Source: an uncultured virus (IMG/VR IMGVR_UViG_3300042988_001938)
Lineage: Duplodnaviria > Heunggongvirae > Uroviricota > Caudoviricetes
Strand: one strand, 5' to 3'
Virus record (IMG/VR): IMGVR_UViG_3300042988_001938
Length of the DNA: 64,000 nt
In this document: positions 25,363-63,847 of the stretch, piece after piece
Position numbering within the stretch: the first letter of the stretch is position 1
Layout: every line of letters starts with the position of its first letter
Made by a program: the position numbers and the translations under genes
Notes under the pieces: model-generated
What the model saw: only the letters and a program-made list of their open reading frames with translations
The model's database searches: none
Told to the model about the DNA's origin: nothing

Positions 25363-25661
25363 TTTTCAAAAATCACAAACATAAATAAATTCATTTATAA
25401 TTTAGAATCAGTATAAATAAAAATTTGCCTGCTGCCTGTGGTCCTGGTGCTGGGTTGCTCCTGGGTGGAAGAAAGTTTGGGGCAGGGGTGGATTAACCCT
25501 GCCAGGTCTGTTTCACTCCTGGGGTCGAGATTCTGTCTTCGTCCGTTCTCAATACTCTAACAACTGAAATTTCAAAAATCACAAGAATTGGACATCCTGG
25601 TAAATTTTTTTTTTATTATTGACTTATGGGCAGGTTCACTTGCCCAGCCAAAAGTTATTGG

Positions 25662-25729
25662 GCAGGTTCACTTAGAAGGACCCCTCGCCATTCTGTTTCA
25701 CTTGGAGCCTGTCTCGCTTTCGCATTGAC
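25662..25729 (-). ncRNA. small RNA family A copy 1
   Basis: 65/74 nt identical to 40013-40086; ORF-less; starts at the predicted TSS of a repeat. Confidence 0.5.
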
Positions 25730-25771
25730 AATACTCTAACAACTGAAATTTCAAAAATCACAAACCCCCTA

Positions 25772-28700
25772 TTAAATTTTAGAGGGTCTGTTTTTAAGGG
25801 TCTCAATCATTTCTTTGAACTTTGAAATTCTAACTGAGCTACCATTAACAACTACGTATCCTTTCCGAAATTCAAGTTGCTCTACTTCTTTTCCATTGGT
25901 ACGCAAATATTCTTTTGCGTAATCATCTTTAACCTCGTTAAAGACAGTTTCTGTTTTAGTCATATAAATGAATTTATAACTCTAACAACTGAGATTTCAA
26001 AAATCACAAATTATTTGTTTACGTAGAAGCAACTTAATAATTTGTAAAATGGTTCTTATATTCTGGTTAACATAAGATTGCTTTGTTTCTTGTTGTATAA
26101 GAAACAAAAAACCCTGTAGCTATACTGCAGGGTTTATTTTTATTTCTTTTTCTTATTCTTAATTCTTCCTAGTATTTTTTGACCAGAAAGAGAGTGTCCA
26201 GTAACTTCAATTCCTTCACGAGAATTAATTTCGTTAATGATTCTATCAACTTCCATTGGTTTAACATCATTAAATGAAAAAGTGTTTTTAATGATTTCTT
26301 TCATCACCAATTGTCCTTTGGACTTAACTTCTACTTTTTCTCTGTTTGCGCCTTTTACAAATACAGTTAATCTCATGTGTTTTAAAATTTGTTATTATGT
26401 TTTACAGATTCAAATATAAGAATAAAAAAAGAGACCACCAAATAAATGGAAGTCTCTTATACAATTTTTAATATAAAGTATAATACCTTATCCTTGTCTT
26501 TGAGAATCAGCTAGAGCTTTAAGAAACTCTTCATTAGCTTCATCACGAGACTCAATAATACGCTCAACTTCTTTAAGAAATTCTTCGTTCTCATCTGCAT
26601 CATACCCATTATACTCGCACATAATTTTTATTAAATTTTTGCGTCCTGGGTTGTAGTTAATCATTTCCATTAACTCTCTTAGTTTTGTTAATGCTTCAAA
26701 GTCTAATCTATCTCTTTTATTTAGAGCAGCTTGTACTGGGTGAATTTTATCTTCTGCCATGTATTTAGTTTATTTATCTAACAACTTATTTTTCAAAAAT
26801 CACAATTAAGTTATTTAAGAAAAATAAAAAAGCCCCATTTGGGGCTTTGAATTATTTGTTGTTATTGATGAAATACTTCCAGACAAGTTCTTGAATTTCC
26901 TTATTGAATCCACTTACAACTGAAATATCTTTTCTTGCAGCAATTACTGCATGGTCAAAATATGGAACTCTTGAAAAGTATTTGTTGAATTCTCTGTATT
27001 TATAATCATCGTCTGTAGAGAACTTCATCATTTTGAAGTAAAGACTAGCATCACGCTCAATCACTTTTTCAAACAAAAATCCAAGTACTTCACGTCTTTT
27101 GCTATCTTGAAACCCTTCTCCTAAGTAGGTGTCAAGAACTTTTTGAACAATTGCCTTTTTACCTTTTGTCGAACGATATTTATATTCATCAGTTAATTCG
27201 TGTTTATCTGTGAAATTACCCTTCATCAATGAAGTTAAGAATCGAATCATCATTTCTTCATCAATCTTTGAATCAGGGACAAAATCAATTGCTTGACAGT
27301 TATTATCGACAGCTGAGAGACAAAGTGAGTATGCTTTTTTATCTTCAGGAACGAATTCAAGTTGAAGTGGGTTTTTCTCTACGGCAATTGTACAAAGAAT
27401 ATCTGTCTTATCGTCTTCAGGAATCGAATCAAGACCTTTTCCAGTGCTAACAGCCAATCTATATAGGTCTGGCTTTAACTCTTTAGGAACAAACTTCATC
27501 GTACTTCCATCTTTTTCAACAGCTAATCTACATAAATCAGCGGTTTTTCTTTCTTCAGGAACTTTTTCTAAACGAATTGGTCGTTCTTCAATCAATGCTG
27601 TATACATTTTTTGTGTAATGTATTTATCATCAACACCATCAAAATCGTAAATGCTTTTAGCATTTTTAATTACTTGAATCTCAAATAAATCCAAAATATC
27701 TTCATCTTCCTTAATACCTTGAGGAAAAACAATAAAGTTTTGAATACCTTTATAATCTCGTCCGCTTTCAAGTAAGGCTTTTGTTGCTATTTCTTTTGTA
27801 ACAATATCCTCAATCAAATTTGAAGGAATTTTTCTAATATTAGAAATATTTTCTTTTACTGCATAAGTGTAAATCAACTTTAAAATATCTTTATCAGTTA
27901 CTTTATCTAAGTTGGCAATCTCATGTGACTTTACAAGTTTTACAAAAGAAGCTATTGTTACTCCCCATTCTTTTTTAAGAACTCTGCTTGCATAATCTCT
28001 AATCTCAACTTGACTAGAGTATTTTGGCGTACCATTAAGTACAAGTTCAAAATTCAATTGGTCTTCAGGAATACTAATTACAATTGACGAATGTACTCCA
28101 CTTGCAAGTGCCGCTTTAACAACTGCAGGAGTTCTTAATTCATAAGGCACTTTCATTAAATCAAATGCTCTATTTTCTACAATAGCAATTGCTTCTTTTT
28201 CTGTTGTTGGTTTTTGTGCTGTAGTTGACATATCTCTTTTTTTTAGTTATCTCTTATTACTCTAACAACTGGAATTTCAAAAATCACAGGACTACAATTC
28301 CTGAGTAAACGACTGAAGAATTAGCAATCTCAAGTCTCTTTAATTGTTTCTCTGCATCCTCATCACTACGAGCAATGATGTTCTTATAGTGTTCATTGTC
28401 ATTTACCATGACTTTATATTTTCTCTGACCAATCTTTGACTTGGAAACGAAGTCACCTTCGAATAGTGTGTGCTCATCAGCTCCAATCAACTTAAGGACT
28501 TCATCAGGCTGAGAGTCATGGTTGGTATTCTTTCCAATAAACTCAGCAACCTTTGTGAATTTCTTTAGCTTGGTAACATTGTCTGTTGAAATGTTGAATG
28601 TCATGCCGTACCACTTATCCTCTCCGATTGTTTGCTGGAATGTGATTGTTCCAATTGGTTCAAAGTATTCATTGCCTCCATAGCGAGGAAAAAGAATCTC

Positions 28701-29358
28701 AATATGCATAATCTTATACTTACCTTGAGAGTTGCTGTATGTAATTCGAACTGGAGTCTTCATATCATTCTTGTGTTTGGTTATAAGTCTCTGCTCGCAC
28801 GGTGCATTAATCACTCGTGCTTTATGTTATCCTAACAACTGATTTTTCAAAAATCACAAAACTAAATCTTGTGCTCAATAATCATGAAAGCCTTCTGACC
28901 ATTTACTGTGAATTGGTACTGGTATCGTCCAGGTTCTTTGCCACCTGTCCAAGAACCCAAGCAAGTTAGCTTTGTGAATCTTGAGTACTCCTGAAGAGAA
29001 AAGGCTGTTGACTTAACTCTGGCCTTATCACCCTTAACCTCTACATGGAATTCGTGTCCATTATCCCAAGGAGTATTCATATTGAAGTCCTTGTATAACT
29101 TTATTTTAAATGTATATGTTTCCATTGCTTTTATCTATCTAACAACTGAAATCTCAAAAATCACAAGTCCATCTTGAGTTGTGTTCCAAGTCTTGGCTTC
29201 CCAGTTCCTGAAGTTCCCAGAATCAAATGAAACTCTGTAGCGTCAAAACCTCTTAGGTCAAAGAAGTCGAATGTAGCCTTGGCCTGTTCCTTTGTGACTT
29301 TCTTGCGGTATCCTCCATGGTTTGCCTTGTGCTTGCTGCTATTCGGGTTCCAACTCAT
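25772..29358 (-). other. Small hypothetical cassette genes (25772-25963, 26140-26376, 26488-26760, 28284-28763, 28862-29125, 29161-29358)
   Basis: ORFs lying between array repeats. Confidence 0.65.
26852..28231 (-). CDS. DUF4116-repeat protein
   Basis: Repeated units such as LCRLAVEKDGSTMKFVP and LCTIAVEKNPLQLEFVP. Confidence 0.7.
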   Translation of the reverse strand: MSTTAQKPTTEKEAIAIVENRAFDLMKVPYELRTPAVVKAALASGVHSSIVISIPEDQLNFELVLNGTPKYSSQVEIRDYASRVLKKEWGVTIASFVKLVKSHEIANLDKVTDKDILKLIYTYAVKENISNIRKIPSNLIEDIVTKEIATKALLESGRDYKGIQNFIVFPQGIKEDEDILDLFEIQVIKNAKSIYDFDGVDDKYITQKMYTALIEERPIRLEKVPEERKTADLCRLAVEKDGSTMKFVPKELKPDLYRLAVSTGKGLDSIPEDDKTDILCTIAVEKNPLQLEFVPEDKKAYSLCLSAVDNNCQAIDFVPDSKIDEEMMIRFLTSLMKGNFTDKHELTDEYKYRSTKGKKAIVQKVLDTYLGEGFQDSKRREVLGFLFEKVIERDASLYFKMMKFSTDDDYKYREFNKYFSRVPYFDHAVIAARKDISVVSGFNKEIQELVWKYFINNNK

Positions 29359-29368
29359 GACTTACTTA

Positions 29369-29397
29369 TTATACGTTTAAAACTTACTTTTGTTTCT
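29369..29397 (-). promoter_or_regulatory. ECF-type promoter AGAAAC-N16-CGTATAA
   Basis: Upstream of ORF starting 29358, in tandem with an array repeat. Confidence 0.6.
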
Positions 29398-29578: not shown

Positions 29579-30193
29579 TTATTCACTTTTTTCGTTATCC
29601 TCTGATTCTGGGCTATCGAGTTTCTTTATTTGCTGCCTGATTTTCATAGCTGTCTCGAAGTCGTCATTGCTGACGGCTTTCGCTAGTTCCTCCTCAAGCT
29701 GCTCACGAGTTTTATTTACGTTTTTAAATACTGGAGCATCTTCTGACCTTCTTAGAGCAGCATCGGTTATACTCTTAATAATCATCTTAGAGAAATCACT
29801 CATTCCATTAACTTCACCAAGGTCTGTTGTTGAAGTTTCTCCTGTATTCAGGTTGGTGATTGTGATTGAACCGTCTTTGCCCATGTCCTTAATGATGTCC
29901 TTTATTGATGGAGGTAAAGATGGACTCTTCATGTCTCTGTACATCTCTGCCATCTTTTGTTGAAACTCAAGTTGGTTTGTATAGATGTCCTTGAACAACA
30001 TGATGGTTGTTCCGATGTTGTTTGAAATGACAATCACTGATGCCAGGATAATTCCCAGAGAGAAAAGCACTACACCTTCGAACAAGTTTCCTTGAGGTGT
30101 GAATAAGTTGTCAATTGTAAGGTATCCACCAACAAGAGTAAGTGCCAGTGAAGTTAGCAATGATGCTATGAGAACAAGTCCAGATAATTTCAT
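29579..30193 (-). CDS. membrane protein with C-terminal UVR (UvrB/UvrC) coiled-coil motif
   Basis: 2 TM segments; LEEELAKAVSNDDFETAMKIRQQIKKL. Confidence 0.75.
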   Translation of the reverse strand: MKLSGLVLIASLLTSLALTLVGGYLTIDNLFTPQGNLFEGVVLFSLGIILASVIVISNNIGTTIMLFKDIYTNQLEFQQKMAEMYRDMKSPSLPPSIKDIIKDMGKDGSITITNLNTGETSTTDLGEVNGMSDFSKMIIKSITDAALRRSEDAPVFKNVNKTREQLEEELAKAVSNDDFETAMKIRQQIKKLDSPESEDNEKSE

Positions 30194-30255
30194 AAAAAAA
30201 GTCTTTACGGTACAAATTTACGTAAAGACTTTTTATTATGCAAATAAATTTTTAT

Positions 30256-30510
30256 CTATTCTGACAAACTTTCTATAATCTCTTGAATCTCATCTACATA
30301 CTCTTGCTCGGAGTCCAGGAAATCCTCTTCATTCATAACTACCTGGATTTCGGAGCAGGCGTTAATGACATCATTAATGTCTTCGGCCTGTATGGCATCA
30401 TTGTATATAGATTCAGTGACTTCAATTAATCTTGGGTTTTCAGATTCGTAGCAGAGTTCGACAATTCTCTCAAAGTGCTCAAGTGCTTGTTTCAATTTCA
30501 TGTTCGTCAT
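30256..30510 (-). CDS. small acidic protein
   Basis: ORF, Glu/Asp-rich. Confidence 0.65.
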   Translation of the reverse strand: MTNMKLKQALEHFERIVELCYESENPRLIEVTESIYNDAIQAEDINDVINACSEIQVVMNEEDFLDSEQEYVDEIQEIIESLSE

Positions 30511-30554
30511 TTTTTGTTTCTATTACCATTAAATAGAAAAAAAAACAAGAACAC

Positions 30555-31466
30555 TTAATCGTTTCGCTTAAGAATGTGACTTAAATTTTCAATAAGCATC
30601 ATTGTCTCGACACAAATCTTCATGTCGTCATCTGTTGCTTTATAAATCTTATTGTAAGACTTTGAGAACTCCTTCTTGAATTCAGGGTAGTTTCTATTTT
30701 TAGAAACACCAATTAGGTATCTCTGAATAGAATCTGAAATGAAAGAAGGGAGAGACAGGTTTGTATTAATAAGCGCCCACTCATCTGGAGTGAAGAACTC
30801 TATGTGACGGTCATCACTCGTGAACGAATAGAAAATCTTACCAATCGGACCCATACGATTCTTTGTGGTCACCATGTATCTTTCATTGGTGTCTGGGTTG
30901 GCAATCATCTTAATTGGACAGTCAACATCGAACACGGTAGCCGCAGGACCTTCTACTTTACCCTCAGCATTCAGCTGTACAATAAGAATCACAACTCCTT
31001 GCGTCAAGTCCTTCCAGTCATACAAGTCCTTGATGATATTCTTATAGTTATCGTACTTATATTTTCCATTTTCTTTGGACAAAAGTTCTGCAGCGTGCTG
31101 AAGTGAATCGACAATAACTAGGGAGGGTTTGGTTTCGTAAATATTCTTAATGAACTGAGTCCAAAGAGGGAAGTCATCGACATCAGCAATGAGTTCCTTT
31201 TCACCTGTCTTAATTCGAGAGGTTTGACGAGCGACTGAGGACTTACGGCTTTCAAGAGCATAGAACAGGGAGGGCTCTGAGAAGTCACGCTGTAGTTTCT
31301 TACATAGTGTTGTCTTACCTGCACCTGAAGTTCCTGCTAGGGCAATCATGACACCTCTCTCTACTCCACCCTTTGAAGATAGAAATCCATCGAATGTGTC
31401 ATCGCCAAACTTAATTGTTGGCTTGTCAATAATCTTGACCTTATCATATGGAATTGCCTTGCTCAT
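30555..31466 (-). CDS. RadA/Sms-like RecA-family ATPase
   Basis: Walker A GTSGAGKT, Walker B VIVDSLQ, KNRMG motif. Confidence 0.8.
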   Translation of the reverse strand: MSKAIPYDKVKIIDKPTIKFGDDTFDGFLSSKGGVERGVMIALAGTSGAGKTTLCKKLQRDFSEPSLFYALESRKSSVARQTSRIKTGEKELIADVDDFPLWTQFIKNIYETKPSLVIVDSLQHAAELLSKENGKYKYDNYKNIIKDLYDWKDLTQGVVILIVQLNAEGKVEGPAATVFDVDCPIKMIANPDTNERYMVTTKNRMGPIGKIFYSFTSDDRHIEFFTPDEWALINTNLSLPSFISDSIQRYLIGVSKNRNYPEFKKEFSKSYNKIYKATDDDMKICVETMMLIENLSHILKRND

Positions 31467-31473
31467 ATTCTTA

Positions 31474-31503: not shown

Positions 31504-31542
31504 ATGGAGGGAGAGCTAGTGAGTTCCCCCTCCATTGAATTC

Positions 31543-32415
31543 TTATGCATTCAACAACTCAAGCCCGTAGTTAAGTCCAATCATGTTCGCTTCTTTCTTT
31601 GCTCCGAACATCATGCTGTAGTCACCAGAACCTGCAGCTTTCAAGACGTGAGTTGTGTAGTGAGTTACACCGTTGAACAATCCCCAAGCGTTGTGACCAA
31701 CCTCATCCATCTCACCACGAACTGAAGCAAGAATCGAGTCAATCTTGTTCAAGCGCTGAGTAGTGAACTGCTCTTCACGCTCTGCAGCGGTAAGCATTCG
31801 CTCTTCCTCGGTCATCTTAACAAGGCGTGCTACACACTCCTGAACCATTTGCTCAGAGACCTTAACACCTTGAAGCTTTTGGAAGTTCTCGTATAACTGC
31901 TTCTCAAAGTCACGGTAAGTTCCAATGCGATTGATAATATCCTCAACACGCACCATGTTGTTCTTTGTGAGGCGGCTAGTGAAGTCCTCTACAATTGCTC
32001 CAAACTGGTTGGTGCAGCGTAGGTAAGTGTTTGTGTGTCCAATGAAGAACGAACGGCTTCCATCGAATCCAACACCAAGTGTTAATAATCCTTCAAGTTT
32101 GCTGCCTGCAATCTCAAGCGGCTCAGAAATTTCAATCTGGCAAGTAATCACAGGACGGGCTTGACCAAGGTTCTTTGCCTTATCAGTTGTATCCCAGTCG
32201 TTGAATGACTTGACAGTTCCACCAATCTTGTGTGCAACTTCGTTGGCAGTATCAGAGAACTGCTGAGTTGTCATCGGGTGGAAGGAGTCCTTCATGACAG
32301 CAATGCTTGCACCATTGTCATCACGGGTAATCTGCTTGTACCCCTTAATTGGGTTTCCGTTAATGTCCAAAATTCCCGTTTGCTGAATGTCCCAGTCGAA
32401 TGCATTTGTTTTCAT
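31543..32415 (-). CDS. DUF932/DUF945 family protein
   Basis: FDGS...RCTNQ...NAWGLFNGVTHYTTH motifs. Confidence 0.8.
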   Translation of the reverse strand: MKTNAFDWDIQQTGILDINGNPIKGYKQITRDDNGASIAVMKDSFHPMTTQQFSDTANEVAHKIGGTVKSFNDWDTTDKAKNLGQARPVITCQIEISEPLEIAGSKLEGLLTLGVGFDGSRSFFIGHTNTYLRCTNQFGAIVEDFTSRLTKNNMVRVEDIINRIGTYRDFEKQLYENFQKLQGVKVSEQMVQECVARLVKMTEEERMLTAAEREEQFTTQRLNKIDSILASVRGEMDEVGHNAWGLFNGVTHYTTHVLKAAGSGDYSMMFGAKKEANMIGLNYGLELLNA

Positions 32416-32533: not shown

Positions 32534-32773
32534 ATCTAAATTTAGAAAGGAAAGTATAAGGCAGGCTGGAGTCTACTCTCCCATCACCCTTTCGAGTGTC
32601 GGCCCTTCCTATGTTGGACAATACTCTAACAACTCGATTCTCAAAAATCACAACAAATAAAAAAACCCTTCAGATTTTTCTGAAGGGTCTCAAATAATTA
32701 CGGACTGGAACAATGTTCACAATTCCATCGGTGTGAACTCCGACCACCTGTGCTCAAGCGAGTCCGTGTATCT

Positions 32774-33391
32774 TTATGCTTCTGCAAGTAAGTCTTGTAG
32801 AATCTTTTGTCCACGCATTGCGTTTACACGTAGTGTTGAACAGTTTGCGTCAACTCCTTCACGTTCTGCAATTTCTTCAAAGGACAATCCGTCAATGAAT
32901 CGGTATTGCATTAGTCTGCGAACTTTATCGTTCTTAATGCTACCAATAGCTTTGTTAACGGCTTCTGAAATTTGGTCACGAACCATTTCTTGCTCTGGTG
33001 TCAAGGTATGTCCATTAATTTGGAATTCCATACCCTCGTGTTCATCAGAAGTCTTTGAAGCCAAAGAATCAATTGAAAGAACTTCGAACTTGTCCTTACG
33101 CTTGTGGTCAATCAAAACGTTGTGTGCAATCTTGTAAAGCCAAGTGGAGAACACAGACTGAGAAGAATTGTACTTATCAATGTTCATGTGAACTTTCTCG
33201 AATGTAATCATCTTCAAGTCTTCTGCTGTTTCAGAATCTTTAATGTTCTTACCGAAGAAGAAAGCTATTTGTCTTTGGTGGCGTGAGTAAATTTGCTCAA
33301 AGGCTTTTTGCTTTTCTCTGTCAGTTGATGTATTGCTTTGTAAGACTGCAACTAATAGTAAGTCTTCGTTTGCATTTTTTGAATTGCTCAT
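32774..33391 (-). CDS. ECF-type RNA polymerase sigma factor
   Basis: Region 2 (AEDL...FEKV...FSTWLYKIAHNVLIDHKRK) and region 4 (GLSFEEIAEREG). Confidence 0.9.
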   Translation of the reverse strand: MSNSKNANEDLLLVAVLQSNTSTDREKQKAFEQIYSRHQRQIAFFFGKNIKDSETAEDLKMITFEKVHMNIDKYNSSQSVFSTWLYKIAHNVLIDHKRKDKFEVLSIDSLASKTSDEHEGMEFQINGHTLTPEQEMVRDQISEAVNKAIGSIKNDKVRRLMQYRFIDGLSFEEIAEREGVDANCSTLRVNAMRGQKILQDLLAEA

Positions 33392-33452
33392 GTTATCTCT
33401 CTTTTTATTGGTTCTTATATCTCTCTAACAACTGGTTTCTCAAAAATCACAT

Positions 33453-36303
33453 TTATTTAGAATTTTGACGAATGAATTCAAGCATTTTAAATCCGTTTTT
33501 AAATGTATCACATCCACGGTTAATTTTAAAATCTTTAGCCGTATCAGGAACACCTCCATTTAATTCATAAACAGGGCAACTGTTATCGCAACTAGAATGA
33601 ACTTTATCACAAATCTCATAAAGCTCATTTGCTAAATCTTCATCGGTGATTTTTTCTTCTTTAATTAATTTCATCAACAAATCCATATCTCAGTATTTTA
33701 ATTATAATAACTTAGACTTAAAAAATCACAGACTACACTTTCTGAAAATAGGAAGAGTCAATCCAATCATTGTGCTCTTTAATTTTAACCCATTGTCCAG
33801 AGGTTCCTGCAATGCGGCTAACATCTTTAACGTCTGTAATAACCTTCTCACCTGTTTGAATAAATTCTCCAAGCTGTTCATCCAGTGGGTTTCTTAGCAA
33901 ATTAGCTTTATCTCCTATTGAAAACATAATCTTTTTTCTCTCTAACAACTGATTTCTCAAAAATCACAACAACCCAAGTTTCTTAAGTTCAAGAATCTCA
34001 TCAGTAGTTGCCATTCTGCTATCTTCGAAGTAAAGGTTGACCATTGCCTCCTCAATTAACACTTCTGCAACAACATCCATCGACACATCGAACTTATTAT
34101 AGAAATCCTCCTTTGTGGTTAATTTCTTAATAGCATCAAAGTCTACTCTTCTCTTAATCAACATCTTCTTACACATGACTTTTTTATAAAAAAGCCTTTG
34201 GCGTTGGATTAACCTTAGGTGCAGGCACTGTCCAAGGGTCGTCTTTCCTTGGCTTTGGCTTGACCTCACGCTCAGGCTTGGGTTTCACATCAGGCTTAAC
34301 TGGTGCAACCTCCGTCATCTCTATCATCTTCCTCATAACTTGTTATACGATTTTTTTCGATTTAAGTTTCAAATTACCAATCTCTGGACTCTCGATGCAT
34401 GCAATCATGACATCCGCAAGCTCATCATAGCTTAGCTGTGTCATCCTGGCAATTGCGAGCGGCAGGTCCTGTGTATCCAAGTCTGAAGCACTCAGGAACC
34501 TGGTCCATAGTGTGGGTGACAGCAGGTAGTGCCAGTACTCATTCTCATATGAATCAGCTATGGCGTAGTAGTACCTGAGTTCCTCCTCACTGTAGTGCTT
34601 TGGTATACCATGGCAGATTAAATAATCCAAGGCACCCTTAGCTACTTCGTGTAACAGTACTGGGAAGTTAATAGCATGACAATGAACGTTACATTCTGGT
34701 TCCCCTTCCTCTTCGAATTCAAGCCTATTGAATCCTTGAGTTGTTGCAGCGCCTGAACCAATTGCATTCTGGAATGCGTCTGGCTCCATCTGCCAGATGA
34801 GGTATCCAATGGTTGTTGTATACCTGTCGTACAGTTCCATCAGCATTGGGTCCAACTCATCTATCTTGTCTTTAATGATATAGTGCGCAGACTTCCATAT
34901 GTGCATCGCTGCACCATGGACCAATCCGTTAAGGATGATTCTCTTCTGGATTTCCTGGTACATCTTCCTTTGCTCTTCTGGAGAAAGGGAGAGAACGGGG
35001 TCGGGAGAGTCGTCCTGGCCATCTGGATTAGCATTAAGGCCTGTATCTATATCAGGGAGAATCTTGACGTGTTCAGGGATGTCGAACAGGGAGCGGATGG
35101 TATCCACTGCAATCTGTTTGAGCTCCTCTACGTATCTCATCTCCTTGTTAAAGATGACATTCATCATATCACTCATCCTCATCTGAAGACTAACTATAGA
35201 CTGGGGAGTTGACAGCGCAAACTCCTGGGGTAACCTTCTTTCAAATAACTCCAGACATCTCTTGTATTCTTCAGATGATAATACTTCAGGCTTATAGTGA
35301 TAAACCCGATTCCCATCCAGAGAAAACATCTTGGAATCAATCCTATTGACGATTCCATTGTGAGGTCGATGTCTCAAACCTCTGATTGACTCGGAGAACT
35401 TTTTCTCCTTGATGTCACTTATACTTGGCTTTCTTGGTCTTTGCATGACGCAAAGTTAATTAAAAAAGCCGAGATTTTTGTTTTTTAGGCGAAATTTAAT
35501 TCTTGCTGGACACCAGCCCCTGTGAGCATTGCCAGCTGCTTTTCAAGTGCTGAAGTAATGTAGCCTCCATATTGAGTTGGCATCATGTAGTTGTACAGGC
35601 CTTCTTCACTTCTTGCAATCCAGTATCCTGAAGAAAAGTCTTGTTGAATCTCATCAGCAATCTTTTGAATCGCTTCAGCATTGAACTGGTTATCTGGGCT
35701 GCTGGTTATTTGCTCTTGATGCTTAAGGGAGACTTCCCCAAACTTATCCAGCCATCCATTGAATTCGAAGTGGAACTCTGGGTCATTATTAATCGACTCT
35801 AGCTCAAGTTCGAATAGGTGTGCTGCAAGTGCTACCGCTGCTAATCTTGTTACTTTCATGACCTTCTAATTTTAGAATTTAGGACTTGCTCCATCTGGTG
35901 CACTGTAGTCTACATCTTTCTCGCTGAAATCGTGGTTTCCAGACTCATCAAGTGCGAGTTCAATAGCTTCATCCTCTGAAGACGCAAGAACCTCAATTGT
36001 TCTGAATGCATAACCTGTGCGGCATACTGGTACAATCCAAATCTTTTTCTCTGCAGTCATAGGAGTGACTTGGGGAGAGTCTATCTTGTAGTCCTTACGC
36101 TGCTCTTCAGTAAGGTTCTGAACAACTTGCTGGTAAATGAGTTCCTTCAGGTTCTCCTGAATTGCATCAAGCTTTTCTTGCTGTTCTGGCGTATTGCCAC
36201 CACTCTGGGTTAATGCATACTTGTGTGCACCAATCATTATAACATCACAGGCAGCTTCTACTTGGTTTGCTATGAACGACTTAAAATTATCCTTGAAACT
36301 CAT
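33453..36303 (-). other. Small hypothetical genes (33453-33686, 33733-33927, 33964-34156, 34184-34336 Pro-rich, 35485-35859, 35872-36303)
   Basis: Co-oriented ORFs; starts corrected to lie downstream of the repeats. Confidence 0.6.
34343..35446 (-). CDS. hypothetical phage protein (367 aa)
   Basis: Long ORF, FPVLLHEVAKG motif; TAACTTTG element upstream. Confidence 0.8.
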   Translation of the reverse strand: MQRPRKPSISDIKEKKFSESIRGLRHRPHNGIVNRIDSKMFSLDGNRVYHYKPEVLSSEEYKRCLELFERRLPQEFALSTPQSIVSLQMRMSDMMNVIFNKEMRYVEELKQIAVDTIRSLFDIPEHVKILPDIDTGLNANPDGQDDSPDPVLSLSPEEQRKMYQEIQKRIILNGLVHGAAMHIWKSAHYIIKDKIDELDPMLMELYDRYTTTIGYLIWQMEPDAFQNAIGSGAATTQGFNRLEFEEEGEPECNVHCHAINFPVLLHEVAKGALDYLICHGIPKHYSEEELRYYYAIADSYENEYWHYLLSPTLWTRFLSASDLDTQDLPLAIARMTQLSYDELADVMIACIESPEIGNLKLKSKKIV

Positions 36304-36346
36304 ACTCTTTATTTTTCTAACAACTGATTTCTCAATAATCACAATG

Positions 36347-36419
36347 TCCCCCTGCTGGGATTCGAACCCAGGACCAAAGGTTTTAGAGACCTCTGCTCTG
36401 CCAACTGAGCTACAGGGAG
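36347..36419 (-). tRNA. amber suppressor tRNA (anticodon CUA)
   Basis: CTCCCTG/CAGGGGG acceptor, GCTC/GAGC D arm, GAGGT-CT CTA AA-ACCTT anticodon arm, CTGGG-TTCGAAT-CCCAG T arm. Confidence 0.9.
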
Positions 36420-36451
36420 AGAAAGAGGGAGAACCGAAGTTCTCCTTCTTT

Positions 36452-37252
36452 TTATTTTAACAATGAGGCAATGTCCTCAGCAGAAGCCTTGCTCTTAAGT
36501 TTTCGAACAATCGCCTTAAGCAATGTTGCCTTTGCGCTTGTTGGGTCTGCAAGGGAGAGTGCTTCCTCAAGGACAGCAATTTCGCCCTTTGCTTTCTTTT
36601 GCTTTGGCTGACTAGGTGTTTCCTTCTCAGCTTTTTTTGTCTCAACGAAGTTCTTAGCTGCCTCAACCAATTCTTCATCGGTTGTTGTTTCACGCTGTAA
36701 GGCGTTCACCTTTGCAACGGAAATTTCACCAGCCTCAATCATTTTCTGTACAGCCTTTGGTGCTTCTGCGGCTTTCACAAGGTTGTACTTCTGTGCTTGT
36801 GAATCACCAATTGCAAGTGAGGCAATAATTTCTTTCTTGGTAACTCCAAGTTCAAGCAACTTAGAAATTCCCTTAACCATTTCACTGTTGGTAAGACTGT
36901 GAGAAGCATCACCATCGAGTAACATGGCAGTCACACGCTCCTTCTCATCGCTTGAGCCTGCCATAATGCTCATGTGCGTAATTTTTGCACCATACTTCTC
37001 ATTTGCCAAATTAATGGCAGCTAGTCTACGGTGTCCTGCAGTTAATACATACTGCTCAGTTCCACGGACTTTGTATCCAATCCCTGGGTTTACCTGACCA
37101 GTCTTTGCAAATGACTTTGCGAGTTCGTCAATTCCCTTGAGTTCTTCACGAACGTTGAAGCCTTCCTGAACAATTATGTTTCCGAGTGCTACCTTGATGT
37201 AGTCATTCTTGCTGTTCTTTGGCGTTTCTTGTGCTTCTGCTGTTTTTGACAT
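36452..37252 (-). CDS. ParB/Srx-like N-terminal domain protein
   Basis: GFNVRE...IDELAKS...LTAGHRRLAA. Confidence 0.8.
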   Translation of the reverse strand: MSKTAEAQETPKNSKNDYIKVALGNIIVQEGFNVREELKGIDELAKSFAKTGQVNPGIGYKVRGTEQYVLTAGHRRLAAINLANEKYGAKITHMSIMAGSSDEKERVTAMLLDGDASHSLTNSEMVKGISKLLELGVTKKEIIASLAIGDSQAQKYNLVKAAEAPKAVQKMIEAGEISVAKVNALQRETTTDEELVEAAKNFVETKKAEKETPSQPKQKKAKGEIAVLEEALSLADPTSAKATLLKAIVRKLKSKASAEDIASLLK

Positions 37253-39553: not shown

Positions 39554-40012
39554 TGCTATACGTTTTGCTTGTTACACTACTCTAACAACCCAAATCTCAA
39601 AAATCACAACAAACAAGTCATACGACTTTCAATGTGTTTAAAGTCTTTTGTAAAACAATTGAAAGCTAATTTTTCAAGTTTGTCAGCCTTGCGTAAACCA
39701 GTAACCATAACATCACAATTAACTCCAAGCACGGCTCTAGGTTGTTCTGTAATTGGACAATATACATATCCAAATATAATTCCAATAATATTCATTGGGC
39801 TTGAATTTGCATGAACTATTTCACCAACCTTGAATTCAAATTCATCTTTATTCAACTCATAAAATCCCTGTTGAACATTGTTGCAAAATTCTAGGTGGTT
39901 TTTTACTATTTCTTGTGCTACTGTTAATTCCATGTTTATTTGTTTGGTTCCAATACTTCTAACAACCCATTTATCAAAAATCACAGAGTGTCTTGACGGG
40001 GTTCACAATAGT

Positions 40013-40080
40013 GCAGGTTCACTTAGAACGACCCTTCGCCCTTCTGTTTCACTGGGAGCCTGTATCGCCTTCGCATCTAC
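40013..40080 (-). ncRNA. small RNA family A copy 2
   Basis: Paralogue of 25662-25735 with a compensatory change in the 5' stem. Confidence 0.5.
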
Positions 40081-46646: not shown

Positions 46647-46675
46647 TGAAACATCTTTCTTAAATTTGCGTATAC
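46647..46675 (+). promoter_or_regulatory. ECF-type promoter TGAAAC-N16-CGTATAC driving the tRNA cluster
   Basis: Motif precedes + strand RNA genes; overlaps a TAAATTTG host-type element. Confidence 0.65.
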
Positions 46676-46808: not shown

Positions 46809-46881
46809 TGCGGGGTGGAGCAGTTGGCAGCTCGCAAGGCTCATAACCTTGAGGTCGCACGTTCGAGTCGTGCCCCCGCTA
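46809..46881 (+). tRNA. tRNA-Met(CAT), initiator-like
   Basis: TGCGGGG/CCCCGCT with unpaired 1-72; CAAGG-CT CAT AA-CCTTG. Confidence 0.9.
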
Positions 46882-47045
46882 CAAGAAATTAAAAAAATGA
46901 AAAGATTTGTTAACATAGAGGTAGTCGAACGTGAGGAGGAAACTCTTCCGATTGGCTATTCCTTATGTTAACGCCAGATTTCGGGTACGTAAAGTACGCT
47001 TAATCATTGCAAGGGGTAGCCAGTTTGGTTACCCCTTTTTTATTT

Positions 47046-47117
47046 CGCCCATTCGTCTAACGGTTAGGACGTTAGGTTTTCAACCTAAAAACACGAGTTC
47101 GATTCTCGTATGGGTGA
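47046..47117 (+). tRNA. tRNA-Glu(TTC)
   Basis: CGCCCAT/ATGGGTG; TTAGG-TT TTC AA-CCTAA; T arm ACGAG-TTCGATT-CTCGT. Confidence 0.88.
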
Positions 47118-47172
47118 CAAGATGACCATGACAGTTGGTCGGAACCTTACCAGTTCCTTTGGTCATCAAAAT

Positions 47173-47246
47173 GCTATGGTATGCAAATTGGCTAAGCACC
47201 CAGTCCTTCAAACTGGTCTGTGCGGGTTCGAATCCCGTCCATAGTA
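47173..47246 (+). tRNA. atypical tRNA, anticodon TTC (C at position 33)
   Basis: GCTATGG/CCATAGT; CCAGT-CCTTCAA-ACTGG; GCGGG-TTCGAAT-CCCGT. Confidence 0.7.
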
Positions 47247-47255
47247 CAAACATAC

Positions 47256-47329
47256 GTTCCTGTAGAGTAACTGGTTAACTCGTCAGACTTTCAATCTGGA
47301 GATTGCGGGTTCGAACCCCGTCAGGAATG
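47256..47329 (+). tRNA. tRNA-Glu(TTC) with Asp-like body
   Basis: GTTCCTG/CAGGAAT; TCAGA-CT TTC AA-TCTGG; GCGGG-TTCGAAC-CCCGT. Confidence 0.88.
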
Positions 47330-47330
47330 C

Positions 47331-54700: not shown

Positions 54701-56075
54701 GTCTTCGGTTCAAGCCCCTCAATCCAAACAACATAGTATTCAGGGTGAGACTCCACAACAAAGTATTTATGGTTAGACTCCTCCTTATGCTTTTCAAGCC
54801 CATCTGTGTATTCAACGGAGACTGTCTTTGAGTCTCCATCATATTTCCAAGAAAACTTTTCGCATTCTCCGTATGCACCGAAAATTCTAGTACCCTTTGA
54901 AGCGACTCTTGTTGTATATATACCAAGGTGAGGAATTAAGCCTGCAGAAGCCATTACCTTCAATATCAATTTCTTTGCAGCTCTCAGACTGCCCACATAC
55001 TTTGTGAAATCTTTTGATGTATCAATCTTTCCCATGACTCTCTAACAACTGGAATTCCAAAAATCACATGAAGTCTGCAATTCGGTTAACTGCAGGCGCA
55101 GGAACTCGCTTCGCCTTAAGTATAAGCTTGTTATGAACACAAACCAGCTCTGCAATGAACTTTTTGGTTCTTGCATTGGTGTATTCAGCGAACTCAATCG
55201 CATCACGCAAGGCAACTGTCTTGCTGTTCTCCAGTGCATACTGGAACAACTCATCTGTGTAAGCTTGGGCAGACCATCTATCTTCAGTCTCGTCCATCTT
55301 CTCAATGTAAGCTTTAACATCTGGACGCTGGTTGTACGCTTCGTTAATTTCTAACGCTCTGCTACGAGCATCCTCAGAATCAAACTGTTGCCAGTAGCGA
55401 CCTGAGCTAGTTTCCCACTCAACCGCAGGAACATCCCACTTGCCTGTTTCCTTATTGAATGAGTAATCTAGGTCTGAAACGAATTTAACGTACATAGTTC
55501 TTTTTGTTTGGTTACACTACTCTAACAACTGAAATCCCAAAAATCACAAGATAATCTTGCCGAGAAAATAAAAATTTGCGACCAGCAAAGCAGGTCTAAA
55601 CCTGCGGTCAGGCAAAAAGTATAAGGCAAGCTGGAGTCTACCCTCCGCAACAAACAAAGTTGTTGAGCCTGTCTCGGTCTCCCACCGACATAACTCTAAC
55701 AACTCAAATCTCAAAAATCACATGACCATGTAGACTTGGTTAATGTTTTCATTATTGTCTAAGTGAATTTCTAGTATATGGTCTTTGCTAAGGTCTGAAA
55801 ATGAAATAATCTCATCGTCAACCATTCCATGCTCTTCGTCCATTGCGTAGTCCTTAGACAATCGCATAAAGAATTGACCTTGACCTCCTTCGAATTTAAT
55901 TCTTTCAAATTCTTTGAGTTCTTTAATTGGCTTAATACTCTTAAGCAATGCCACTAATGCTCTGTGAAATTCTTTTGTTGCTATTGGTAAGTGTCCTGCC
56001 ATTATATTGTTTTTTGCTACACAGTTCTAACAACTGAATTCTCAAAAATCACAACTTCGTTGTTCGTGCCGAAGC

Positions 56076-59400: not shown

Positions 59401-59733
59401 AAGCCATCCTTAACATACTTCGCCTTAACAGGAATTGTCTCACCCCAGTCTCCAATTCGGTCAATTGAAACTTCTAGTTGACCATCTTCTTCTGCAGAAG
59501 CTTCTTCCTGAATTGCTTTGCCCAACTTTGTGGTTAACTCGAAGTCATCTCCTGCGGTAATTACTGCAACTGGGTTGCCTTGGTAACTTACAATGTATGC
59601 TGTTTTTTCCATTTCAGTTTTGTTTGACACTCTAACAACCCAATTCTCAAAAATCACAAAAGCCCGCTAGAAATTCCAACGGGCTCTTGAGTAACTAAAT
59701 AAATAACAAAACAATATGCAATGACATTTGTTG

Positions 59734-59807
59734 TGTAGGGGGCATGGAGTTGAACCAGCGACACATCGGTGTTCAGCCGACTGCTCTACCACCTGAGCTA
59801 CCCCTAC
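59734..59807 (-). tRNA. tRNA-Phe(GAA), atypical (C37, bulged T stem)
   Basis: GTAGGGG/CCCCTAC; GTCGG-CT GAA CA-CCGAT; TATATTTG element just upstream. Confidence 0.8.
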
Positions 59808-59853
59808 ATAACCAAATATATAAAACCAGAATTAAAATATCAAGGGCACCAGC

Positions 59854-60072
59854 AAAAAAAAGTCCCAGGAAACACGACTAACCTGGGACAATTTTTATGG
59901 TTACCAAGAAACACGACTAACCTGGTACCTTTGTGGCACCCTGGAAACACGACTAACCAAGGTGCTCTGAAACTCTTTCTATGTGGGGCACCAAGCTCTT
60001 TTGCCTGGGCGGTTCCTGGTATCGACTTGTCCCTGTTTCCAGGGCTCGTCCTGGTTACCAGGGCTCCTTCCT
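59854..60072 (-). ncRNA. putative sRNA with three hairpins bearing the identical loop UUAGUCGUGUUU
   Basis: Repeat promoter at 60079; loops at 59870, 59909, 59945; stem mismatches are G-U on the - strand; ends in U8. Confidence 0.72.
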
Positions 60073-60168
60073 GGAACTCTAACAACCAGGATTTCAAAAA
60101 TCACATGGTACCAGGAGAAAACAAGAAGCCAGGAACATTGTCCTGGCTCTATTAGTATCTGGGGAGAA

Positions 60169-61209
60169 TTAGGTCGGTCCACACCCCTCTTTAAAGGCTC
60201 CTGCAGGGAGTTTCCATGTTCCCTCTGGCATAATGATGTCGTGAGGGTAAACTCTTGCCATAGCCAACGCTTTTCTCTCTGGGGTGATGTCTGCATAGGG
60301 AGTTCCCTTTGCAACCAATTCCTCAACACTTTCCTTACGCTTGATGGTCACACCAAACTCTTTCTCGTAGTCTGCAATCTCTTGGGTTCCATCTGGGTCA
60401 ATTGCGTATGCGCTTGCGAATTGGTCAGCGTTACCGAATATACACTTCATGCAAGACACTCGGCTGAATCCCATCTCGTATGCAACGTGAGGGCGAATTC
60501 TCCATCGTTCAATAATCGCCCAGACTTCATGCTCTGTCCAGTCACGAATTGGTCGGAAGTGGTCAACATATCGGGGAGACTTTCCATTTCGTAGGTCACT
60601 TCGGTCAGCTTCCAGAATGTTGTACTTCCCTCTGGCACTACTCTCTTCTCCACGTTCTCCTGTGAGGACTAGCGTTCTAAGTCCTTCGAATCTGTTTTGG
60701 TTTCGAATTGCAGAAGCGCAAATGTCAATCTTAAGGTATGCACTGCACCAGCGAGTTGAAAGGTCTGCTGAAACTTGCGGGAACTTTCGTCTGGTGTTGT
60801 TGTATCGCTCACCCTTACGGCTCTCAAGCTTCACAAGGTTGAAGTTCTCGTCTTCGAAGTAAATGTCACCAGTTGACTGGTTATCTCGAAGCATCTCTCT
60901 CTTGAATCCACCCTCTCTCCATGAGAAGTAAATCGGGAAGTTGAATGCACCAGCGAACGCCATGCAATACCCCTTTGTAATCGGCCAGTCCATGAAGTTT
61001 CGCTCGTTGGTGGCTACTTCTCCGTCAATGTCATGGTGCCAGAGTTCAATCTTGCTTGAGTCAACTCCTTGCTCCAGTAGATGCAGAACAAGCGCAATCG
61101 AGTCTTTGCCTCCAGAGAAACACACAATGTACTTGTCATAGTTGTGAATGTCTCCCAGCATAGCCATCGCCTGCTCTTTGGTTTGAATTAGTTTTTCGTT
61201 TTCTTGCAC
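60169..61209 (-). CDS. phosphoadenosine phosphosulfate reductase family protein
   Basis: FSGGKDS PP-loop, RWCSAYLK, GERGEESSAR, RVSCMKC. Confidence 0.85.
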   Translation of the reverse strand: MQENEKLIQTKEQAMAMLGDIHNYDKYIVCFSGGKDSIALVLHLLEQGVDSSKIELWHHDIDGEVATNERNFMDWPITKGYCMAFAGAFNFPIYFSWREGGFKREMLRDNQSTGDIYFEDENFNLVKLESRKGERYNNTRRKFPQVSADLSTRWCSAYLKIDICASAIRNQNRFEGLRTLVLTGERGEESSARGKYNILEADRSDLRNGKSPRYVDHFRPIRDWTEHEVWAIIERWRIRPHVAYEMGFSRVSCMKCIFGNADQFASAYAIDPDGTQEIADYEKEFGVTIKRKESVEELVAKGTPYADITPERKALAMARVYPHDIIMPEGTWKLPAGAFKEGCGPT

Positions 61210-61289
61210 GTCTTATTTCGTTTGGTTACATCTATCTAACAACCAGAATCTCAAAAATCACAAAGGGAGACCTAAGTCTCCCATTGTTT

Positions 61290-62006
61290 TTAGCAATTAT
61301 TTTTTACCAACTTTTCAAGCTCAGCCTTTAATGCTCTTTCATTTTCAGGAAAACCACCCATCAAAATAATGTAATCAGCTACAGCTTTTTTCATTTTTTT
61401 GTGATTATACTTAGGGTTTCTCATAACTCTAACAACAGCACGTCTACAAAAAGCCTTGTCTGGTAAGTATTGGTTCAAGTCAACCATCTGAGAAATAATC
61501 TTGTCAGAGTTTTCCTCATTTGGAAACTTCATTGTTCCTTTTCTGTAGTCAGCTTGGTCAGAAGTCCCCAAGTAAGCTTCAAGAAGTGGTGTAATTTGAA
61601 AACCAGTTTCTTTTTGAATCTGTGTTAACTTTACATACTCTTCAATAGCCATGTCAGACCATACTTGCAAGAAGTTAGAAGTTCCCCAAGACTTTGCGCT
61701 AGTATTTAACTCAGCAATGAATTGTGCAGCTTCCTTTTTTGTATTCAACTCAGTCAATTCAAAACGAATCGGAATACCTAGTTGTTGAGCGGCTGCAAGT
61801 CTGTGCTGTCCATCAACAACATAGTATCTCATCACACCGTCAATGAATTTTGTCTTAATAATCTGAATCACGCCTTTGAAGCCGTTTTTCTTCATACTCT
61901 CAACCAATTTTTTAACATGAGCCTTATCAACTTTACGGTTGAATTTCAACAAGTGAAAAATTGAATAATCAGTTGTTTCGAAATAAGTTACATTTTTAAA
62001 ATTCAT
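61290..62006 (-). CDS. ParB-like N-terminal domain protein
   Basis: NRKVDKAHVKKLVESM...VVDGQHRLAAA. Confidence 0.8.
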   Translation of the reverse strand: MNFKNVTYFETTDYSIFHLLKFNRKVDKAHVKKLVESMKKNGFKGVIQIIKTKFIDGVMRYYVVDGQHRLAAAQQLGIPIRFELTELNTKKEAAQFIAELNTSAKSWGTSNFLQVWSDMAIEEYVKLTQIQKETGFQITPLLEAYLGTSDQADYRKGTMKFPNEENSDKIISQMVDLNQYLPDKAFCRRAVVRVMRNPKYNHKKMKKAVADYIILMGGFPENERALKAELEKLVKNNC

Positions 62007-62307
62007 AGTCTCTCTTTTTATTTGTTTACATCACTCTAACAACTGAAATTTCAAAAATCACAAAAATTATAAATCTATTTGTTTTTTTATTATAAATTTA
62101 GAAAATTGTGCAAACCCAGAGTTTAATGCAGGCTGGAGTCTACTCTTCCGACTGTATTTCAAAGCCAGGCCCCTTTTATATAGCTCTAACAACTGGAATC
62201 TCAAAAATCACAAAACCCCCAGTTGGTAGGCTGGGGGTCTCGCTGGACTAAACAAACAGGGCTAACCAGCCCACCTGCACGCAGCAGGTCTCGACAAACA
62301 AACTTTT

Positions 62308-63758
62308 TTATTTATTTTCAGTTACGCTTTTAATAGCGTCAATGTAATCTTTCTGCAACTTCTCTGCTCCTGCCTCATCTACCGTCTTCAACTTGGCAAT
62401 AAGGTCATTTACACCACAACCCTTAACAGGAAGTGTTTTATTTTTGATGGCTTTCAGTTTTGTCTTGATAGCCTTCTCTAGGTCGTCTGCGTAACTCATC
62501 TTAGTTCTCTTCTTTAATTTCAACTGTCAAAATACCGTCTGTGTTAATATCTTTAGGCAACTCAACCTCTGTGTTGTAGACATTTGAAATTTGAAGTGCT
62601 CGACCAATTTCAATCAGGCGTACCGCTAGTTGGTCTACTGACCCACTTCCTGAAATGTTTATGTTTAAGTTCTTTGCCATTTTACTTTCTTTACTTATCT
62701 AACAACCCGTTTCTCAAAAATCACAGAGTTTATTTTGTTAACTTTTCAATCAACTCATTTGGAGTTCCTTTCCAAGTTTTTCCACCAATAGAAACTTCAA
62801 TTTCGCAGTTTTCTCTTCTTTTATAAGATTCACCAAAACCCTCAAAAGCATCCACAGAAATGTAATCTTCATGTGAGTTGTTTTCAGAGCCGCCCACAAA
62901 AGAAACAACTTGTCCTTTGTTTTCTTGGTAAGAAGGGCTTCCGCCTCTAACACCTGTAACTTTTAAGTTTATTTTTGCGCTCATAAATTCGTTTTTAACT
63001 CTAACCACTCGTTTCTCAAAAATCACAAATCAAATGTTTGACTGTGCAATAATTTCCTTTGCTTCATTGGTGAACTCATCATCACTCAAAGCCAATAGTC
63101 GGTCTTTCTCTTCTTCGTCAAACCAAACTGAAACAGCAACAACGTTGTCAGTTACAAGAGCAAGGTTAAATAATCCCTTTGCCATAAGGTTTCCTTCGTT
63201 AAGGCGAATATCGTTTACTTGTCTTAAAACATTCATGTCTATATCATTTGGTTACAAGACTCTAACAACTCGTTTCTCAAAAATCACAAATTACTTATGA
63301 CTTTTTATATATTCCATTTTTTTAGCCAAGGCTTCTTTCATCATGTCCTCAGTGAACCAAGAAAACATTCTGCTGTCAATTACCATGTGAACGAATGTCT
63401 CCACATGAACAACAAAAAATGAACCAGCTGGCTTAACTTCAATTTTGTACTTGTGAGGAATTCCACCGCTACAACTCCAAGAACCATTTTCTTTAATAAA
63501 GCAAGAAATTGTTTCTAAGTTTTCATTGTAGTCAAGACTTTGAGTGTGGACGTGCCAAGCAAGGTCGTTCTTGCTAATTCTCTCCCATCTGTTCCAATTA
63601 CTTGTATGCTCCGAATAGAACCCGTTAAGGAGGTCTGTAACATATCGTGCAACGTCCTCAAGAGTTGGAAGTGTTATTGAACTTGTTCCCTCTTGCGCAG
63701 AAACATATGAAGTTCCCGTTGCGTGTAAATTGTTTGCTTCAAATTTTATTAGTTCCAT
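62308..63758 (-). other. Small hypothetical genes (62308-62499, 62730-62984, 63030-63236, 63291-63758)
   Basis: ORFs between array repeats. Confidence 0.65.
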
Positions 63759-63847
63759 GTTACTCTAACAACTCAGTTCTCAAAAATCACAAAGGGAGAG
63801 AAAAACTTCCCTCCCCTTGCAACATGAAAACAAACAACAAACTTTAG

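Follow-up and report, generated by a model that had tools for sequence, protein, structure and literature searches.

Why does one short sequence recur scores of times, almost always on the same strand, along the genome of a phage? The question is raised by a stretch of 64,000 nucleotides (hereinafter the window), which forms the start of a linear 137,481-bp record of an uncultured caudovirus (IMG/VR IMGVR_UViG_3300042988_001938; hereinafter G000). This record is about 60% complete according to CheckV, and we infer that it derives from a jumbo phage of Bacteroidota; apart from the possible source, the two public runs with the best matching DNA are from freshwater. An initial annotation, made from the letters of the window alone, had described the repeat as a promoter-like element delimiting self-contained gene cassettes that could be gained, lost or reordered in integron-like fashion, with a role in site-specific recombination as the alternative. 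The signatures that the repeat carries indicate that it is very probably a promoter and not a recombinase site. The explanation that we favor, with moderate confidence, is that it is the early promoter of a Bacteroidota jumbo phage, that a factor, probably phage-made, heads the ensuing sigma cascade, and that the cassettes are exchanged at these promoters by homology.

The repeat (hereinafter the class-1 motif) has the form TGTGATTTTTGA-N7-GTTGTTAG, and the window contains 65 copies of it, 52 exact and 13 with one to three mismatches, as compared to 0–1 match at up to three mismatches per resampled window (n = 20). The count, the minus-strand orientation, the period of about 600 bp (mean 597 bp, median 477 bp) and the absence from the left 25 kb (0 copies in positions 1–25,500) are all as the initial annotation had it. 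The span it gave holds within the window, but the array continues past its end: a scan of the whole record yields 110 copies from 25.6 to 80.4 kb (end at 80,424), nearly unbroken over ~55 kb, with 108 on the minus strand (25,557 to 80,366) and two on the plus strand (79,117 and 80,398). The spacer is 7 nt long in every copy; its sequence, previously regarded as variable, does comprise 54 distinct 7-mers in 108 copies but is not free, following the consensus RAWWYSR with an A at motif position 14 in 106 of them. No copy lies inside a minus-strand open reading frame (ORF) of at least 60 aa, in keeping with the proposed placement at gene boundaries, and four overlap short plus-strand ORFs. Most of the 64 window intervals hold one to three ORFs or a small RNA, as had been described: one ORF is present in 41, two in 11, three to five in 5 and none in 7. 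All eight terminator hairpins named earlier (26831, 29438, 32664, 45741, 48169, 57399, 59661 and 61264) were recovered; however, they are not as frequent as had been implied, only 21 of 108 copies (14 of the 65 window copies) having a strong hairpin that ends no more than 25 nt upstream, against 1–8 of 108 in a random control.

Conservation of the class-1 motif extends to position 34, where a purine is found in 107 of 108 copies, with a pyrimidine just before it in 96; in four relatives, the same position is a purine in 75/76, 54/54, 72/72 and 12/12 copies. An ATG begins exactly at position 34 in 33 of the 108 copies, as compared to at most 6 at any neighboring position, and the intervals devoid of ORFs encode predicted small RNAs that also begin there, under two different motifs. 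The genes at these 33 copies are without a leader and the remaining leaders are A-rich; the Shine–Dalgarno sequence is described as absent from Bacteroidetes (PMC7366714). The layout of hexamer, T-tract, second box and a start 6–7 nt after the -10 box is the promoter geometry of extracytoplasmic function (ECF) sigma factors, for which a T-tract has been documented (PMC1540707) and of which SigW has the -35 consensus TGAAACxTTT (PMC6713349). It is unlike the -33 TTTG and -7 TAnnTTTG of the Bacteroidota housekeeping promoter (PMC7366714), and a sigma-70 promoter scan performed at chance level (41 vs. 45 and 33 vs. 40). The motif also serves the gene preceding it: the TGA at positions 3–5 is the stop codon of the upstream ORF in 36–40 of 108 copies, depending on the ORF caller, while a TGA in the next frame (positions 10–12) ends only 2 ORFs. 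Two relatives use it as a stop donor in 28/76 and 20/54 copies, and a third, G001, in 7/72. The start-site signature upholds the earlier view of a promoter-like element with self-contained cassettes, a view that had been reached without this signature, the ECF gene of the array, the second promoter class or the non-housekeeping type of the motif. The motif, its start-site signature, the two promoter classes, the constant order of cassettes with varying content and the junctions bounded by motifs are read directly from the sequences, whereas transcription itself, its timing, the reader of each promoter class and the recombination route are inferred.

Might the repeat instead be an attC or CTnDOT-type site with a 7-bp overlap, acted upon by a tyrosine recombinase encoded elsewhere? 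Its variable core of fixed 7 bp, the resemblance of GTTAG to the attC core (GTTRRRY is seen in 18 of 108 copies) and the stop codons within the site are consistent with this, as is the Xer-like recombinase that G001 encodes 80 kb from its array, G000 being incomplete. However, the arms TGTGATTTTTGA and GTTGTTAG are not complementary and show no inverted repeat or dyad symmetry; RYYYAAC lies upstream in 6 of 108 copies versus 10–18 in random sequence, with no inverse core; and the bottom strand folds at -6.7 kcal/mol versus -6.5 for random sequence, with no hairpin. PF00589 and PF00239 have no match in G000, G002, G003 or G005, so that the reported lack of an integrase in the window extends, for tyrosine and serine recombinases, to the whole (incomplete) G000 contig, and neither an IntI integrase nor an attI was found on either side of its array. 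The Xer-like enzyme of G001 falls below the integron-integrase cut-off (152.6 vs. 265 bits), and the order of the cassettes is kept rather than shuffled. The start-site signature explains the conservation of the motif, and we regard this alternative as already largely refuted and extremely improbable.

Comparable arrays exist in related phages. While an exact query with the class-1 motif gave 0 matches in a viral contig collection from which the source and very near records were possibly excluded, a metagenome scan recovered 26 stretches. Long arrays are found in A48 (L008, L022 and L020; 76 copies), B42 (L013–L026; 54), C46 (L010; 20) and D4 (L006; 13), in addition to several short contigs; isolated single matches in L005, L007 and L029 were dropped as chance. 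An ECF profile search reached more distant phages and, among 79 loci, uncovered strong ECF-type repeats in G001 and two near-identical records, G003, G002 and L034. In G001, TGTAACTTTTT-N10-CGTTATA occurs 75 times within a single block, and in G003, ATATTCTTTTT-N10-CCCTATA occurs at least 12 times at the contig end, both with the start geometry of G000. G001 carries a T4-type terminase, and one of its proteins is also encoded on a 364-kb record; its array and that of G005 are apparently from the same strain and show no cassette differences. G008 has only two shared genes and is crAss-like, and no array was seen in G006, G007 and G009. The part of G001 without counterpart in G000 includes genes for an RpoD-like sigma, a host-like ECF and the Xer-like recombinase (10385–11320, 17677–18309, 30130–30930).

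What, then, reads the class-1 promoter? The array itself encodes an ECF sigma factor, P0001, with SigW as its closest solved structure (E 7e-26) and ~80 homologs at 41–97% identity, the best cellular matches reaching 37% over most of the length; a query of the viral contig collection with P0001 alone gave no match. Its gene lies behind a class-1 copy in G000, A48, B42, L025, G001 and G003, and autoregulation by P0001 was our initial reading, dropped once a second class of promoter was found. This class-2 motif, TGWAAC-N16-CGTATAA, matches the SigW consensus and is spread genome-wide in these phages (16 sites in G000, 41 in G001 and 43 in G003); outside the G000 array GAAAC-N16-CGTAT was observed 8 times against 0.07 expected. 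In the ECFs tested, R171 (RpoE numbering) selects C-31 and D84 selects C-13 G-12 (bioRxiv 2020.06.23.168245). Both residues are invariant in 57/57 aligned P0001 homologs, and class 2 has C-31 and C-13 G-12 in every lineage, whereas G000 class 1 has T-31 and T-13 and that of G003 differs again at the bases read by R171 and D84. The base at -34 is selected by residue 172, found as V alongside A/T-34 (G000, A48, B42 and G002) and as T alongside G-34 (G001). Altogether, residues 171, 84 and 172 of P0001 fit class 2 and not the class 1 of G000. The array promoter, moreover, differs by lineage (TGTGAT/TGTTAG, TGTAAC/CGTTAT and ATATTC/CCCTAT), with class 2 conserved beside it. Since P0001 is itself an array product and fits class 2, the class-1 reader is most likely not the array-encoded ECF, and since the motif is rewritten between lineages, it is probably phage-made. 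The RpoD-like genes of G001 and G003 sit behind class-2 sites. In the complete phage G002 and in L034, a related ECF gene lies behind a host-like TTTG..TTAnTTTG stretch and the class-2-type motif alone was found. At L034:9800-10000 and L035:9800-10000, in two distant phages, a reversed TGTAAC half-site overlaps the host-like promoter of the ECF gene, as might befit feedback repression.

Some observations weigh against this division of labor: no further sigma gene that could read class 1 was found in the DNA examined (the ~60% complete G000 and its relatives), the residue code is a statistical one, derived from other ECFs, and the class 1 of G001 also fits it. This last point favors an autoregulated regulon, in which P0001 would read class 1, primed by packaging or read-through, and another sigma would read class 2. 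The ECF gene behind a class-1 copy in 6/6 close-clade records with upstream DNA, the autoregulation of about half of ECFs and the change of class 1 between lineages as the sigma diverges (51%, 32–39% identity) would all agree with such a circuit. Nevertheless, class 1 changes at the very bases that the invariant R171 and D84 read, while class 2 is conserved over the same lineages and fits P0001; in G003, ATATTC/CCCTA and TGAAAC/CGTATA differ too much to share a single sigma, and the second sigma of this phage is RpoD-like. Hence, we consider the autoregulated regulon unlikely. Two other candidate readers were rejected: the second ECF of G001, whose gene follows a class-2 site and whose matches turn to host-like proteins after just 3 further close homologs, and a divergent accessory ECF cassette of C46 (L010:15692-16360, plus strand), which forms 9 clusters and is missing from both G000 and A48.

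A host stress or stationary-phase ECF could also read class 1, in which case the phage would need no factor of its own to start. A second promoter type of B. thetaiotaomicron has -30 and -10 boxes (PMC7366714) and a TGTT near -10, assigned to host ECFs (PMC12596196), and class 1 has TGTT at -12 to -9. However, class-1-like sites are not in excess in one candidate host order, that of G011 (11 vs. 7 in the control in 68 genomes; below the control in nearly all of 41 genomes), and three related phage lineages have three different class-1 motifs. We hold a host reader to be quite improbable and continue to favor a phage-made one.

How do the cassettes turn over? Homologs were found for 26 of 93 coding cassettes of G000 in A48 and for 27 of 53 in B42. 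In three genome pairs, the shared genes are in register in 31/34, 30/35 and 27/28 cases (tau 0.96–0.98), which argues against the integron-like reordering proposed earlier. Between the shared cassettes, these pairs show 7, 15 and 7 replacements, 7, 3 and 7 pure indels, and 4, 3 and 1 displacements. Twelve of 18 pure indels are clean, the shorter genome reading from the gene end through one motif into the next gene, and the earlier suggestion of gain and loss at the repeat, as in the promoter-early stem-loops (PeSLs) of T4-type phages, gains support from this comparison of order and content among relatives. Upstream of these 12 the flank matches the first copy in 11, and downstream it matches the last copy in 7. 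The longest perfect match between class-1 copies has a median of 29 nt and is at least 30 nt in 52 of 108. A 1365-bp block shared by A48 and B42 at 97% identity (other blocks are mostly at 70–88%) has one end at the last base of a motif (+28) and the other within the small-RNA core. One assembly links C46 to B42 via a single cassette that both opens and closes D4, with borders at motifs; this can be a cassette duplicated around 12 others or a circle (4.7-kb loop). The pattern fits PeSL-like homologous exchange in place rather than integron-like reordering. A block-end test with masked motifs (21/60, 23/52 and 18/42 vs. 11–12%) suffers from masking bias and was not used.

Several points weigh against the repeat as the cause of this turnover. 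Among the clean indels, only 7 of 12 show the expected downstream flank, and the three genome pairs lack independence. As for the duplicated cassette, it comes from an assembly loop in a relative and not from reads. Gene sharing with G001/G005 is 3/42 and 3/29 in the repeat-free flanks, 26/104 in the array and 50/63 in the core; turnover is as fast in flanks that lack the repeat and hence does not require it. Neighbor pairs are conserved across a motif versus without one in 4/37 versus 4/18 (p 0.42) and 6/36 versus 6/16 cases (p 0.15; Fisher tests). Because motifs fill nearly every gene gap, motif-bounded junctions are also expected from selection for intact genes. Finally, no excision joint with a long side was seen among 15 of 71 joints in the assembled contigs of four public runs; these 15 have sides of 25–50 nt and are short matches between repeat copies, and of six loose ends two come from other copies in the same genome and four, not contained in it, could not be placed. 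On these grounds, the repeat could be a promoter only, with ordinary recombination in neighboring genes or illegitimate events moving genes and selection trimming the gaps down to the promoter. The variability of the flanks, at least that of the array, the non-significant Fisher tests, the kept order and the lack of circle evidence all suit this reading, as do the 40 stops at motif positions 3–5 versus 2 at 10–12, which point to selection for compact junctions. We find it rather unlikely, in that the 97% block and the exact cassette duplication end at the motif within a few bases, the copies share ~30 nt of identity, and circles have been demonstrated for PeSLs in T4-type phages (PMC2839356).

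Accommodating these data under exchange at promoters, we propose that each class-1 copy would give rise to a short transcript whose first base is position 34, in many cases the A of the ATG, and which would cover a single small gene, a tRNA, a small RNA or a short operon, the copy often supplying the stop codon of the preceding gene. An early factor, probably phage-made and either brought in by the virion or produced at the outset from a promoter of the host type, would act on class 1 and its 110 cassettes, including the ECF; the ECF would then open class 2 and, in the relatives, class 2 the RpoD-like sigma. The cassettes might come and go, or be swapped in situ, through PeSL-like homologous recombination between related phages, in which the ~30-bp promoter and the small-RNA core would offer common sites of crossover. 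A bolder version, which we offer tentatively as a possibility, is that in this clade infection starts without the host housekeeping sigma: a virion-borne, sigma-like phage factor would open a private block of 70–110 identical promoters, and factor and promoter would be re-coded together in each lineage, insulating the early regulon from the host and from related phages. The promoter would double as stop donor and crossover point, the small proteins and small RNAs behind it forming an exchangeable library, and the ECF sigma, as the first product of the block, would open the next class.

Beyond protein-coding genes, the array houses a family of small RNAs comprising ~ten ORF-less predicted transcripts of 60–80 nt from the promoter +1, with the core GRGTAGACTCCRRCCTRCC (Table 1). 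Further copies lie behind the motifs at 66019, 77494, 79117 (plus strand) and 80366, and the family recurs in A48, B42, C46, L012 and G001. No match to Rfam was found for the window at the gathering threshold or for L001 at E ≤ 1. Folding of 18 sequences gave a 4-pair stem only, with no compensatory changes; hence, we make no claim of a structure or of antitoxin mimicry.

Among the other cassettes, the RecA-fold ATPase is a candidate helper for homologous exchange. The 367-aa and ParB-like genes of the conserved array end are also present in G001 and G003; an Atlas lookup of the conserved 367-aa and 193-aa proteins gave no usable lead. PADLOC matched 2 of 29 array proteins, weakly and only to PAPS-reductase/ParB-type families; at 60169–62006 (minus strand), weak PAPS-reductase-family (DndC/BrxP-like) and ParB-like genes are adjacent cassettes and might form a DNA-modification or counter-defence module. 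A cassette of short GC-rich repeats (GGTTAGTCGTGTTTC-like units) at 59659–60105 (minus strand) ends in an odd tRNA-Phe call (59733–59807). The tRNA-CTA is present despite G000 reading well in code 11 and still using TAG stops; code 15 was rejected, as it barely raised coverage (0.54 to 0.56). A TAG read-through candidate at 8285–9205 proved to be two genes, none of the homologs listed spanning the TAG; a second candidate lies at 18536–19747.

Of the 252 called G000 ORFs of at least 60 aa, 113 from outside the array and 104 from within it were compared with Pfam profiles. The comparison identified metabolic and host-like genes, one of them with a Por-secretion tail, whereas capsid, terminase and polymerase genes were not found among these ORFs. 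Outside the array, CTATTTAT occurs in 12 of 113 upstream regions and is a possible late promoter. The conserved core at 96–106 kb (L002:16476-L003:6845) encodes NAD salvage enzymes (NAPRTase, NAD synthase and NUDIX), adenylate kinase and a CCA-adding-type enzyme. At the array start (79,117–80,424; L001:16117-17424), the copies at 80366 (minus) and 80398 (plus) stand back to back, accompanied by an inverted small-RNA cassette, a conserved gene of 193 aa and two very short units without ORFs, a layout that recurs in A48 and C46. At the opposite end, the left box of class 1 and a complete class-2 promoter (25362) overlap at 25334–25377 (minus strand), and the adjoining 24,900–25,300 is an ORF-poor, GC-richer stretch with a flip in the sign of the GC skew, possibly an origin region.

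Table 1. Features of the window discussed in the text; coordinates are window positions.
Feature	Coordinates	Strand	Remarks
Class-1 promoter array (65 window copies)	25557..63791	-	Predicted start 33 nt downstream of each copy's first base (motif position 34)
Class-1 copy immediately 5' of the ECF sigma gene	33425..33451	-	33 nt from motif end to ATG
ECF sigma factor P0001, 205 aa, SigW-like; probable class-2 reader	32774..33391	-	Pfam, NCBIfam, PDB profile, fold
RecA-fold ATPase	30555..31466	-	Weak RadA/Sms, Sak4, UvsX and DnaB-like matches, all below cut-off; kept in A48, B42, G001
DUF932/TIGR03299-like protein	31543..32415	-	Conserved in relatives
Conserved array end: ParB-like gene (36452-37252), tRNA-CTA, unknown 143-, 124- and 367-aa genes	34343..37252	-	
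ORF-less small-RNA cassette, core GRGTAGACTCCRRCCTRCC	55614..55689	-	Starts at motif position 34; near-identical copy behind motif at genome 66,019
Small-RNA cassette, core GRGTAGACTCCRRCCTRCC	62116..62179	-	
Small-RNA cassette, core GRGTAGACTCCRRCCTRCC	32549..32619	-	Right after the ECF gene terminator
Small-RNA cassette, variant core	40000..40080	-	3' end approximate
Two small-RNA cassettes closing the array	25470..25729	-	About 25650-25729 and 25470-25550
tRNA with CTA anticodon (amber suppressor type)	36346..36419	-	Ends at a motif copy
Four tRNAs (Met, 3 x Glu)	46809..47330	+	Behind class-2 promoter at 46647
Class-2 promoter example, TGWAAC-N16-CGTATAA	32505..32533	-	
Other class-2 sites (starts)	2339, 5800, 18143, 19753, 20579, 23197, 46647	+	
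Other class-2 sites (starts)	34371, 29575, 29397, 25362, 31503	-	31503 with 17-nt spacer

In the G000 array, promoter-bounded gene cassettes occur on a very large scale. That cassettes can be so bounded is already known from PeSLs; what sets this array apart is its size, its RNA cassettes, and a class 1 that matches neither the host housekeeping promoter nor the sigma encoded in the array and that is rewritten between lineages beside a conserved class 2. As the early motif differs in each of three lineages and the second motif is conserved, the ECF residue code can be tested on natural variation, and the early factor can be fished for directly. The ~120 small early proteins and the small-RNA family are candidates for host takeover or counter-defence. 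A program leading from a private early promoter via an ECF to an RpoD-like sigma was not found for any phage in the literature searched, subscription journals being largely outside its scope.

In integron cassette arrays, as around IntDOT sites, long rows of one-gene units are bounded by a repeat that often holds a stop codon. The G000 array resembles these as a long row of mostly one-gene units bounded by a stop-bearing repeat but differs from them in lacking the attC hairpin, inverse core, dyad symmetry and adjacent integrase, in having a promoter for each unit and in its conserved order. Closer parallels are seen with the PeSLs of the T4-type phages RB49/phi1, T4/PST and KVP40/nt-1 (PMC2839356, PMC4122927), where a repeated promoter likewise stands between small genes of unknown function in a hypervariable region, indels leave one copy, and replacement occurs in place through exchange by homology. 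However, PeSL promoters are host sigma-70-like or of the Mot type, as opposed to the ECF-like, non-housekeeping motif of the array, and their elements include a stem-loop and a Shine–Dalgarno sequence, as opposed to a hairpin at only 21/108 copies and 33/108 leaderless starts. Unlike PeSLs, the array has 110 copies nearly unbroken over 55 kb, stops supplied by the motif, and small-RNA and sigma cassettes; circles have been demonstrated for PeSLs, whereas the array is known from sequence and assembled contigs. With the promoters of ECF group 4, such as those of B. subtilis SigW and E. coli RpoE, it shares the two boxes and the T-tract, and class 2 matches the SigW -35 consensus (PMC6713349, PMC1540707, bioRxiv 2020.06.23.168245); class 1 differs from these in being one base shorter between the boxes, in having T for C at the R171/D84 positions and in presenting 110 targets in one block. 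Finally, sigma factors are known from group 2 jumbo phages (PMC7824862), and the Bacillus phage SPO1 uses the host sigma-A for its early and phage sigmas for its middle and late genes (PMC13401047). As in such phage cascades, the early genes of the array include a sigma that would open the next class, but unlike in those of the SPO1 type, the first class is not of the host housekeeping type, and ECF-type promoters are used.

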